This document shows, piece after piece, positions 34,400 through 51,637 of a stretch of DNA of 64,000 nt. The stretch lies in NCBI GenBank assembly GCA_951406725.2, contig OX597820.1, positions 117,986,001-118,050,000 on the forward strand, in the 5' to 3' direction. The translations under genes and the position numbers were made by a program. Position 1 is the stretch's first letter, and each line of letters begins with the position of its first letter. The notes under the pieces are model-generated. The model was not told where the DNA came from. It saw only the letters and a program-made list of their open reading frames with translations, and did no database searches. This stretch comes from Octopus vulgaris. Taxonomy: Eukaryota.

Positions 34400-34978
34400 C
34401 TTTTCTACTCTAGGCACAAGGCCTGGAATTTTTTGGGGTGGGGGGCAGTCGATAAGATCGACCCCAGTGCGTAACTGGTACTTAAGTTATCGACTCTGAA
34501 ACGATGACAGGAAAATCGACCTCGGCGGAATTTGAACTCAGAACGTAGACAGACGAAATACCTATTTCTTTTACTACCTACAAGGGGCTAAACACAGAGA
34601 GGACAAACAAGGACAGACAATCGGATTAACTGGATTATATCGACCCCAGAGCGTAACTGGTACTTATTTAATCGAGCCCGAAAGGATGAAAGGTAAAGTT
34701 GACCTCGGCGGAATTTGAACTCAGAACGTAGCGGCAGACGAAATACCTATTTCTTTATTACCCACAAGGGGCTAAACATAGAGGGAACAAACAATGACAG
34801 ACATATGTATTAAGTCGATTACATCGACCCCAGTTCGTAACTGGTACTTAATTTATCGACCCCGAAAGGATGAAAGGCAAAGTCGACCTCGGCGGAATTT
34901 GAACTCACAACGTAACGCAGACGAAATACCGCTAAGCATTTCGCCCGGCGTGCTAACGTTTCTGCCAGCTCGCCGCCT
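34400..34978 (-). mobile_element. SINE-B trimer: one head + three bodies, the last body carrying the alternative tail
   Basis: The core repeats three times with junctions AAAGAAATAG|GTATTTCGTCTG. The terminal unit ends ...AAATTCCAGGCCTTGTGCCTAGAGTAGAAAAG. Confidence 0.88.
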
Positions 34979-35252
34979 TAAGAGTGAAGAATATTGAGAA
35001 GCATATTTTAATATGCTGGCCATTGATAGAATTTTTTTCGAAATATTCTATCCTATATTAGATGTTAATTTAAAAGTGTTCACTTCCGGACACTCGCACT
35101 TTACGAGAGCTTTTCGGTTCGAATCGCACGCGTCTCGAGGTGTGCTTGAGAATTTCTATTTTGGATATATTTGGGGTACTTAATTGTGCTCGTGTCTTAG
35201 TGCTCGCTTCTTCCATGGGTATAAGTAAGTATTTCACTTATTTCTTTACCGC

Positions 35253-35378
35253 ATTTATCACTGATGAAGCGAAGGTTCTTATGAACTAACTCTGAAATCG
35301 GGTTCGATATGGTAATAACGGAATTTTTAAAGAAATTTCTGTCTGCTTTCTTTGAAACACGTGCTTGTAGTGATAAAT
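35253..35378 (+). ncRNA. Hammerhead-like motif with a long stem II insertion
   Basis: ATTTATCA-CTGATGA...~85 nt...GAAAC-ACGTGCTT-GTA-G-TGATAAAT. Stem I has 8 bp but its register is off by one nucleotide. Confidence 0.55.
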
Positions 35379-36186
35379 TACATGGTTTTTGACGTTGTGT
35401 CTATTTTCGGCATATTTTGGCATTAGAAATTTTTTCTTTTGCTCTTACTTATAAATTGTTTATAAATTTAACCTTTAAAGGTATTTTTTAATATGCTGCC
35501 CATTGACAGAATTTTTTTCGAAAAATTCTATCCTATATTAGATGCTTATATATATATATATATATATATATATATATATATATATATATATATGTACATA
35601 TATATGTATGTATATACATATATATATTTTTTAATAATTTTTTAATAATATATTATTAATATTAGGAAATCAATATCAGATAAATCCTCACTATAGTTGT
35701 AAAATTGATTTTTTTAATTACCCACAAGGGACTATACATAGATGGAACAATACAAACATAAACTCGGGGAACTTAAAATACAAAAAGAGGATGAATTAAG
35801 TCGAAGAAATTAAAGAAATCGAATGAAATATGAAAAGATAGAATAATGAAGCGCAATGCTCACTCGATCCCCGAAGTCGAGTGGTTACATTTCGACAGTT
35901 TTTTTCCTTTTTTCATAAATGAATTACAATAGAATTTTCGACAGTTCTTTTCCCTTTTTCATAAATTATTTTCAAAAATAATGCATTTTTCCTTTCAGGT
36001 TTCTTATATTCTATTATGGGAGGTGGGTACTCCAGTAACCGACACCAATTGTCCAGTTTTATGTTCTTTATGAAGACCTCCTTCAATTTGACGTAACTAT
36101 CCGTTTCTACCAAAACACCGACATCATCTACGTCAAAGTTGTCTCCCACCTTTACTCTTGCCACTCCCTTCGTTTTCGTCCTTCTT

Positions 36187-50100: not shown

Positions 50101-50832
50101 CGTCTGCCGCTACGTTCTGAGTTCAAATTCCGCCGAGGTCGACTTTGTCTTTCATCCTTTCGGGGTCTATTAAATAAGCACCAGATACGCACTGGGGTCG
50201 ATGTAATCGACTTAATCCGTGTGTCTGTCCTTGTTTGTCCCCTCTGTGTTTGGCCCCTTGGGGGTAGTAAAGAAATAGGTATTTCGTCTGCCGCTACGTT
50301 CTGAGTTCAAATTCCGCCGAGGTCGACTTTGTCTTTCATCCTTTCGGGGTCTATTAAATAAGCACCAGATACGCACTGGGGTCGATGTAATCGACTTAAT
50401 CCGTGTGTCTGTCCTTGTTTGTCCCCTCTGTGTTTGGCCCCTTGGGGGTAGTAAAGAAATAGGTATTTCGTCTGCCGCTACGTTCTGAGTTCAAATTCCG
50501 CCGAGGTCGACTTTGTCTTTCATCCTTTCGGGGTCTATTAAATAAGCACCAGATACGCACTGGGGTCGATGTAATCGACTTAATCCGTGTGTCTGTCCTT
50601 GTTTGTCCCCTCTGTGTTTAGCCCCTTGTGGGTAGTAAAGAAATAGGTATTTCGTCTGCCGCTACGTTCTGAGTTCAAATTCCGCCGAGGTCGACTTTGT
50701 CTTTCATCCTTTCGGGGTCTATTAAATAAGCACCAGATACGCACTGGGGTCGATGTAATCGACTTAATCCGTGTGTCTGTCCTTGTTTGTCCCCTCTGTG
50801 TTTAGCCCCTGGGGGGTAGTAAAGAAATAGGT
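47173..50832 (+). repeat. Tandem array of ~20 head-less SINE-B bodies, 184 bp unit
   Basis: CGTCTGCC recurs at 47341+184n up to 50653 (19 units), plus a diverged first unit at 47173-47340. Each unit is B-box (GAGTTCAAATTCC) + Nin/Deu-like core + Tx1-like tail. Confidence 0.96.
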
Positions 50833-51075
50833 TACATATGGTGACTTTTTCTCTTCAGAAACTTTGTCAGTCAAGAGTTCCCTGTCGCTGTTCTTGTGTG
50901 CTTGGAATTTGTGATGTGCCATTGTTGTGGAGAGGGCCGTACTGTGTTACAGGTAAGTCGTGTTAATGTGGGTTTGTATTCATGTCACCGTCATACTGGG
51001 ATATATTTTATAAACAGACGTGGTCAGTATCATATTGAAGGAATACTCCGTGGGGACAAGATCAAATATTGATTT

Positions 51076-51637
51076 TAAATTTCGGCACTAGGCCAGCAAT
51101 TTCGAGGAGGGAATAAGTCGATTACATCGACTCCAGTACGCAACTGGTACATAATTTATCGACCCCGAAAGGATGAAAGGCAATGTCGACCTCGGCGAAA
51201 TTTGAACTCAGAACGTAGCGGCAGACGAAATACCTATTTCTTTACTACCCACAAGAGGCTAAACACAGAAGAGACAAACAAAGACAGACAAATGGATTAA
51301 GTCGATTATATCGACCCCAGTGCGTAACTGGTACTTATTTAATCGACCCCGAAAGGATGAAAGACAAAGTCGACCTCGGCGGAATTTGAACTCAGAACGT
51401 AGCGGCAGACGAAATACCTATTTCTTTATTACCCACAAGAGGCTAAACAGAGAGGCTAAACAAGGACAGATAAACGGATTAAGTCGATTATATCGACCCC
51501 AGTGCGTAACTGGTACTTATTTAATCAACCCCGAAGGATGAAAGGTAAAGTCGACCTGGGCGGAATTTGAACTCAGAACGTAGCGGCAAACGAAATACGG
51601 CTAAGCATTTCGCCCGGCGAGCTAACGGTTCTTCCAG
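51076..51637 (-). mobile_element. SINE-B trimer: one head + three bodies, the last with the alternative tail; inverted relative to the big array
   Basis: Same architecture as 34400-34978. The terminal unit ends ...CCCTCCTCGAAATTGCTGGCCTAGTGCCGAAATTT. Confidence 0.88.

Follow-up and report, generated by a model that had tools for sequence, protein, structure and literature searches.

Site-specific short interspersed elements (SINEs) driven by Tx1-clade long interspersed elements (LINEs), SINE multimers, and SINE satellites are all known. In crocodilians, 313 of 347 copies of SINEU-3 are flanked by Mariner-N4, and both the SINEU-3/Tx1-Mar system and the insertion of Xenopus Tx1L into Tx1D show a Tx1-clade LINE directing insertion to a fixed site in an abundant repeat, with tandems around the duplicated target (Kojima 2015, PMC4494074; for this and the other papers cited, statements concern the part of the text that was available). 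Here, we describe a SINE in a 64,000-nucleotide stretch of Octopus vulgaris DNA (the window; positions 117,986,001 to 118,050,000 of contig OX597820.1, assembly GCA_951406725.2) that has been joined repeatedly to a site within its own head. The 64-kb window, whose first letter is position 1 in all coordinates below, is animal DNA rich in microsatellites. Insertion into itself is a proposal with fair support. What appears to be new is the preferred target in the element's own head, of which no report was found in the literature searched, subscription journals, Repbase, and Dfam being outside the scope of that search.

The described systems resemble this locus in part. SINEU-3 differs in that its target is another element and its head derives from a small nuclear RNA, and headless seamless chains or satellites are not described in the available text (PMC4494074). 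The multimers of another mollusc, Scapharca broughtonii, written TSD-(SINE)n-TSD for target-site duplication (TSD), likewise have a head-bearing first unit, head-truncated inner units, and one outer duplication (Martelossi 2024, PMC11481361). In this clam, the last tail is complete but the inner ones are truncated, a pattern that internal duplication would give and for which the authors invoke unequal recombination, whereas in the present SINE the inner units have complete tails and the final unit has a tail of another type. Squamate sSat arrays are comparable to the 20-unit array described below, being homogenized arrays of part-SINE units of 70 to 290 bases, some with alternating monomers, but their seeding is ascribed to unequal recombination, with same-locus insertion only mentioned and no fixed self target in the available text (Vassetzky 2023, PMC10702118). 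For R2Ol and SART1Bm, read-through pairing has been demonstrated; in these elements and R1Bm, insertion is improved by target-like letters at the 3' end of the RNA, which base-pair with the nicked target (PMC6530143, PMC7265360). These elements are autonomous and use host targets (ribosomal DNA, telomere), whereas for the present SINE the pairing is proposed from sequence.

Compared by description only, the element shares its A/B-box anatomy with the octopus SINEs OK, OR1, and OR2. These tRNA-derived SINEs were reportedly described by Ohshima and Okada in 1994 and presumably belong to the same host group as the SINE studied here. All three have been named in the literature, OR1 and OR2 as CORE SINEs (PMC4758252, PMC4824008, PMC5804259). 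The repeat annotation of O. vulgaris reports abundant SINEs and active L1-Tx1 families, and its available text does not report a self-joined SINE structure (PMC13282606). With regard to a conserved central domain as in the CORE/V/Meta superfamily or OR1/OR2, short motifs of the SINE body were absent from the supplements of PMC4824008 (one of two files) and PMC11481361. Pattern scans of viral, metagenome, and prokaryote genome contigs for further loci gave 0.

A SINE joined to its own head

The SINE is 235 bases long and comprises an A-box-like motif at 13297, a B-box-like motif at 13359, a body, and a tail (coordinates of the monomer at 13285). The motifs were matched against the general patterns of such boxes and, together with interspersed copies bearing TSDs, are as expected of a tRNA-type SINE (SINE2). 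When a tRNA relationship of the head was sought, ARAGORN returned 0 genes and Rfam one chance match for 13200-13600. The 3' end of the element is AAAGAAATA. Its tail agrees with the Tx1-type LINE end at 46017-46058 in 37 of 42 letters, and its comparison with the 3' untranslated region (UTR) of the full Tx1 LINE in the window scored 46, which 0 of 2000 shuffles equaled. By sequence similarity, the 3' tail is common to the SINE and a Tx1-type LINE, as expected of a SINE with a Tx1 partner. Older family members with other tails are found at 18472, 36174, 52193, and 55135, and an older tail-like end stands alone, without a SINE body, at 35710-35755 (minus strand).

In two trimers (34400-34979 and 51070-51648, both on the minus strand) and the 20-unit array, all 23 joins (2 + 2 + 19) consist of AAAGAAATA followed directly by GGTATTTCG. 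The SINE is repeatedly joined to this GGTATTTCG site inside its own head (the self site). The join point, at 13335 in the monomer, lies between the A- and B-box-like motifs. Both the constancy of the join and its place between the boxes had been claimed in a preliminary description of this DNA and were borne out.

Three solo monomers with Tx1-like tails are flanked by perfect duplications of 18, 15, and 19 bases, which 0, 0, and 1 of 1500 random pairings matched in score. Immediately beyond AAAGAAATA, the duplicated target begins, with GGTATT, (G)GTATG, or AGAAAC. GTAT directly after the tail had been noted before at two of the three monomers (55877 and 16438, minus strand), the exception being the monomer at 13285 (13287 in the preliminary description). 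The observation stands in refined form: because GTAT begins perfect duplications of 15 to 19 bp, it is target DNA and not part of the element. A fixed element part was ruled out, GTAT being missing at 13287 and at the array end. Two of three by chance has a probability of 1.4e-4 at the GTAT frequency of the window, for a motif picked post hoc. Three of the four outside ends have 6, 5, and 3 letters in common with the self site. The outside end at 13287 has 0, and 6 in common with AGAAACG in the SINE head, a match that is weak alone because 7.8% of the 6-mers of the window occur somewhere in the SINE. The outer end of the 20-unit array runs on as GGTTAC. The host of monomer 55639 (55377-55640) resembles the C-terminal end of an old LINE, of which a second copy, 95% alike, lies at 7090-7264. 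A patch at 52143-52409 consists of the empty copy of this monomer's target joined to an inverted copy (98%) of 54868-55091; just before it, 52067-52138 matches 63176-63247 at 96%.

The join in public contigs

Beyond the window, reads and contigs aligned to reference positions 13236-13595 were used from 4 of 24 listed runs, namely, X1 (organism A), X4 (organism B), X8 (organism C), and X21, which consists of raw reads, 16 only and too few for ratios. More than 270,000 contigs aligned to the element in each contig run, in keeping with interspersion; contig depth along the element is not a copy number. The joint from 13519 to 13335, with one G between, was present in at least 25 contigs of X1, at least 41 of X4, and at least 8 of X8 (among the joints listed, 15 of 1345), and the same 3' join thus occurs in the contigs of all three organisms. 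In X21, 1 of the 16 raw reads also has it. Loose ends resembling the tail stood before 13335 in 1247 contigs of X1 and 1542 of X4, and before the element start in 2045 and 2607; the rows listed for the loose ends before 13335 do not include X8.

A second joint, from 13348 to 13285 with two letters between, reached a depth of 936 in X1 and 819 in X4 (among the rows listed, 12 of 601). Read on one strand, it is probably a head followed by 15 to 17 bases of the self site and a new head. A head, 15 bases, and another head would be the expected 5' join of an ordinary target-primed insertion of a full copy, and the spacer has the length of the monomer duplications. At positions 13350 and 13445, inner-type alleles made up 31 and 37% of the contig depth in X1, 29 and 35% in X4, and 27 and 22% in X8; in the window, they were found in 0 of 3 solo monomers and 5 of 6 Tx1-tailed multimer unit types. 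Further joints ran from 13519 to 13301, from 13523 to 13350, and from 13525 to 13350, the letters between being not known, and from 13517 to 13301 in X8, with three letters between. These joints suggest that AGAA in the SINE head (13301-13306) may be another self site, equal to the start (AGAAAC) of the 13287 target at 13520-13525. The count of direct tandems leaves out every joint whose letters between are not known, such as 13520 to 13285.

Composition of the trimers

The two trimers are built alike, with the units given in Table 1. Their last tails differ from each other (A1 versus A2), and neither is Tx1-like. The units inside one trimer are 10 to 26 substitutions apart, with unlike tails, and because of this distance they are not duplicates of one another. 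The third unit of each trimer is likely an old resident. The outer duplications of the trimers carry 4 mismatches in 29 positions versus 0 in 52 for the Tx1-tailed monomers (Fisher p = 0.014, trimers only), and the duplication of the solo other-tailed copy at 18472 is decayed as well. In trimer 2, the head has diverged beyond the two inner units (8/50 versus 20/365 differences, p = 0.012). Measured against the majority sequence of the Tx1-tailed units in the window, trimer 1 has 0/50 differences in its head and 12/115 in its last body (p = 0.019), a contrast for part of which a subfamily difference may account; the young type is left 12 bases past the join in unit 3. Since the head of trimer 1 is young while its last body is not, the resident's head was probably not kept but swapped for that of the incoming copy.

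A single trimeric master is ruled out by the decayed outer duplications, the two different other-type tails, and the unequal ages of head, inner units, and outer duplication. The trimers are not a true dimeric or trimeric SINE moving as a unit, which would have one master, parts of equal age, and the same last tail. They fit the addition of young Tx1-tailed units inside older residents. This is what the preliminary description had proposed, with GGTAT as the site of entry and a seamless 5' end resolved by homology, and the proposal gains support from the decayed versus perfect duplications, the different last tails, and the contig joins; descent of the trimers from one master, which it had named as the contrary case, was not found. 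The seamless resolution agrees with the trimers but not with all 5' ends. The last body does carry another tail in both trimers, with Tx1-tailed units upstream, except that there are two such tail types instead of the one expected.

A headless 20-unit array

The array has neither a head nor an other-type tail, and its last unit ends in a Tx1-like tail. It starts 18 bases into the body, after 8 extra bases, within a member of another SINE family that lacks its 3' half. No target duplication was found around the array, the best score being matched by 1267 of 1500 random pairings. Units 2-20 show 0 to 5 differences; one site alternates through units 3-12, and there is no difference among units 14-18. 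Twenty separate insertions are ruled out by the near-identical units and the two-unit period. This periodicity shows DNA-level amplification, and the array grew by duplication of a headless seed, not by serial insertion. With at least four homogenized tandem part-SINE units (98% matches), it has the makeup of an sSat. Thus, the earlier formula of a head plus repeated bodies, and the tail order with the other tail last, describe the trimers and not this array, which is headless, starts in mid-body, ends in a Tx1-like tail, and lacks a duplication. A route from SINE to satellite by retrotransposition, also proposed before, is retained only for the seed of the array.

Unit 1 of the array and unit 1 of trimer 2, which are 240 bases apart on opposite strands, have two indels in common, neither of which was listed at ≥3% in the aligned contigs. 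These indels may have come from a common source RNA or from local copying. Substitution distances between trimer 2 and the array (9 to 13, against 9 to 30 overall) gave no closest-kin signal, and only the indels link the two. The family interrupted by the array is a second abundant SINE-like family (5097-5496, 8923-9375, 30412-30833, 46870-47163, and others), often consisting of two modules flanking a microsatellite.

Mechanism and alternative explanations

The best explanation is that the SINE inserts by target priming at its own site, a choice probably made sharper by pairing of read-through RNA, and that DNA-level expansion follows; we estimate the probability of this explanation at about 0.55. 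Self-insertion by any targeting route, taken by itself, is clearly the safer claim and is probable. The monomers end at AAAGAAATA, with duplications of 15 to 19 bp mostly starting with GGT, and this end directly precedes the family's own GGTATTTCG at the joins, both in the window and among the contigs of three organisms. The enzymes would come from a Tx1-type LINE, with mobilization in trans predicted. If the 5' end were joined normally, a head, a 15-base duplication, and a new head would result; a seamless 5' end could arise through pairing with the resident's head, or the doubled head, 65 bases long, could be lost afterward. In R2, the 5' junction is made by pairing with the target. Read-through by RNA polymerase III is expected since the units contain almost no T4 run (none in trimer 2, the 20-unit array, and two monomers; a single run in unit 3 of trimer 1 and another in monomer 55639). 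Transcription through the tail into GGUAUUUCG would provide an extension that pairs with the nicked target. Such pairing would favor GGTAT sites, the SINE's own being the best, and each round would restore the A box, the B box, and the target. Long arrays such as the 20-unit one then enlarge by DNA-level duplication, as their sequence pattern shows. The stronger proposal that the SINE is both its own target and its own guide, its read-through RNA with GGUAUUUCG behind the tail pairing with nicked family members, is tentative, with the odds somewhat against it.

Abundant SINE heads could also be hit passively, by a partner endonuclease that prefers short GGTAT or TAT and without involvement of read-through RNA. 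The window has 11 self sites and 22 other GGTATT sites, a supply for which its self share does not stand out (p = 0.14 to 0.43), Tx1-clade specificity is credited mainly to the endonuclease in the available text of PMC4494074, and SINEs amount to 11.6% of the O. vulgaris assembly (PMC13282606). However, the product at 16438 has an extra G before GTATG that is missing from the left target copy, which counts for read-through pairing. In addition, the Tx1 copies of the window choose TATC arrays, which the SINE avoids (0/4), and monomer 13287 fits the second join class (tail plus AGAAAC of the head), more simply explained by source-specific read-through. We regard passive insertion as unlikely. 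Similarly low credence is given to multimeric sources, in which a few old joins led to dimeric or multimeric RNAs that were retroposed and then recombined or converted with residents, with no new cuts at the self site. Such sources would account for the concentration of inner-type alleles in multimers and in about one-third of the contig depth in X1 and X4, and for the indels common to trimer 2 and the array; moreover, the array seed resembles a 5'-truncated multimer copy, and the patch at 52143-52409 suggests local copying. They do not predict the joint of head, 15 bases, and head, nor a last unit in trimer 1 that is of the old type 12 bases past the join, and GGTAT at the monomer targets would still need read-through priming, with self-targeting again as the outcome. 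Internal duplication or unequal crossing-over purely at the DNA level, which has been proposed for SINE arrays of bivalves and reptiles, explains the near-identity and two-unit period of the 20-unit array and has a parallel in the blood clam arrays of a head, truncated units, and a last unit (PMC11481361). It is contradicted for the trimers by the substitutions and different tails of their units. The join sits on the exact retroposition end and recurs in the contigs of three organisms and one raw read, so that this explanation, like an assembly artifact, is very improbable for the joins.

Several observations weigh against self-insertion with read-through pairing as the preferred explanation. 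All three Tx1 3' ends (29435, 46058, and 62375) run into TATC/TGTC arrays, as described before, versus 0 of 4 SINE outside ends, and the target preference of the SINE does not equal that of the window's Tx1 LINE. The target of monomer 13287 lacks the GGT start, and neither seamless trimer retains a duplication at the self site. The joint from 13348 to 13285 is not among the rows listed for X8, and those rows do not give the kind of joint. Unit 3 of trimer 2 has the inner-type C, as neighbor-to-neighbor copying would also give, and because of the two common indels, trimer 2 and the array are not independent. The window offers few events, about 3 to 5 at the self site besides 4 outside ends. Their self share, 3/7 to 5/9, can be set beside the yardstick for a site-specific retroposon (Kojima's rule, more than 20% of flanks in one repeat), and against motif supply it gave p values from 0.0005 to 0.43 depending on the assumption. 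A conserved tail hairpin is unsupported, five folds being no better than shuffles (z from -1.13 to +0.52).

If the stronger proposal of a SINE that is its own target and guide is true, self-insertion is a self-reinforcing ratchet in which each insertion rebuilds promoter and target. It would have given rise to a largely headless inner lineage living on the residents' A boxes (about one-third of contig depth) and would fix a 184-base satellite unit across several species. The origin of the first tandem units of a satellite is an open step, for which the papers on SINE arrays cited here assume unequal recombination. With a unit boundary that is both retroposition end and preferred target, the length of the unit would be determined by retrotransposition, which would start new arrays again and again. 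The SINE would also be a natural case for separating endonuclease choice from RNA pairing in Tx1-clade targeting. Automatic repeat libraries would break such chains into many false SINE families.

Table 1. Coordinates of the SINE copies, multimers, and Tx1-type elements in the window (ORF, open reading frame)
Feature	Position	Strand	Remarks
Monomer, Tx1-like tail	13285..13519	+	18/18 duplication (13268-13285, 13520-13537), starts AGAAAC
Monomer	16439..16672	-	15/15 duplication (16672-16686, 16424-16438), starts GTATG
Monomer	55639..55875	+	19/19 duplication (55620-55638, 55876-55894), starts GGTATT
Empty target copy of monomer 55639	52143..52186	+	Sequence match
Solo older copy, A1-like tail	18472..18697	+	GGCATT at self site; decayed duplication 11/13
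Trimer 1 unit 1: head (34930-34979), body, Tx1-like tail	34747..34979	-	Monomer-type alleles
Trimer 1 unit 2: headless body, Tx1-like tail	34562..34746	-	Inner-type alleles
Trimer 1 unit 3: body, other tail (type A1)	34400..34561	-	12/115 body differences
Trimer 1 outer duplication span	34384..34991	-	34980-34991 versus 34384-34395, 10/12 alike; 3/1500 random pairings as good
Trimer 2 unit 1: decayed head, inner-type body, Tx1-like tail	51418..51648	-	Head 8/50 differences
Trimer 2 unit 2: headless inner-type body, Tx1-like tail	51234..51417	-	Unit comparison
Trimer 2 unit 3: body, other tail (type A2)	51070..51233	-	Unit comparison
Trimer 2 outer duplication span	51054..51666	-	51650-51666 versus 51054-51070, 15/17 alike; 0/1500 random pairings as good
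Headless 20-unit array	47172..50829	+	Unit lengths in bases: 163 (1 unit), 184 (18 units), 183 (1 unit)
Tx1-type LINE	56954..62375	+	ORF1 56954-58567, ORF2 58625-62074; 3' UTR ends like SINE tail; flanked by (TATC)n
Tx1-type 3' end	45986..46061	+	Nearest to SINE tail (37/42); then TGTC/TATC repeats
Tx1-type 3' end	29363..29438	+	Then TATC repeats

Tx1-type LINEs and other features of the window

Both ORFs of the full Tx1-type LINE are open, with catalytic motifs present. ORF1 has a CCHC knuckle, and ORF2 (1149 residues) has an endonuclease, a reverse transcriptase (RT), and a zf-RVT domain; the best named relatives, among 37 matches, are labeled Transposon TX1. This LINE was rejected as the proven partner of the SINE, since it ends in (TATC)n and the SINE ends do not. 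Sitting in (TATC)n, it is probably not the exact partner, which may be another Tx1 family. TATC is not among the Tx1 targets named in the available text of PMC4494074. The 3' UTR of the full LINE contains GTATTTCGTC at 62322-62331, ten letters identical to the SINE self site, probably by chance because the two other Tx1 ends differ there. At 29306-30000, a Tx1 3' end, a fragment of the endonuclease region, and an inverted piece of the RT region lie with TATC arrays between them, a layout that would reflect one microsatellite used repeatedly by Tx1-type insertions.

Three further repeats were recorded. A perfect 96-base inverted repeat surrounds a (TTTTTTAAA)n run at 21925-22218, and 44002-44140 and 44290-44427 form an inverted pair at 93%. 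The tandem repeat at 45362-45664, which has three copies of a 100-base unit, is unrelated to the SINE.

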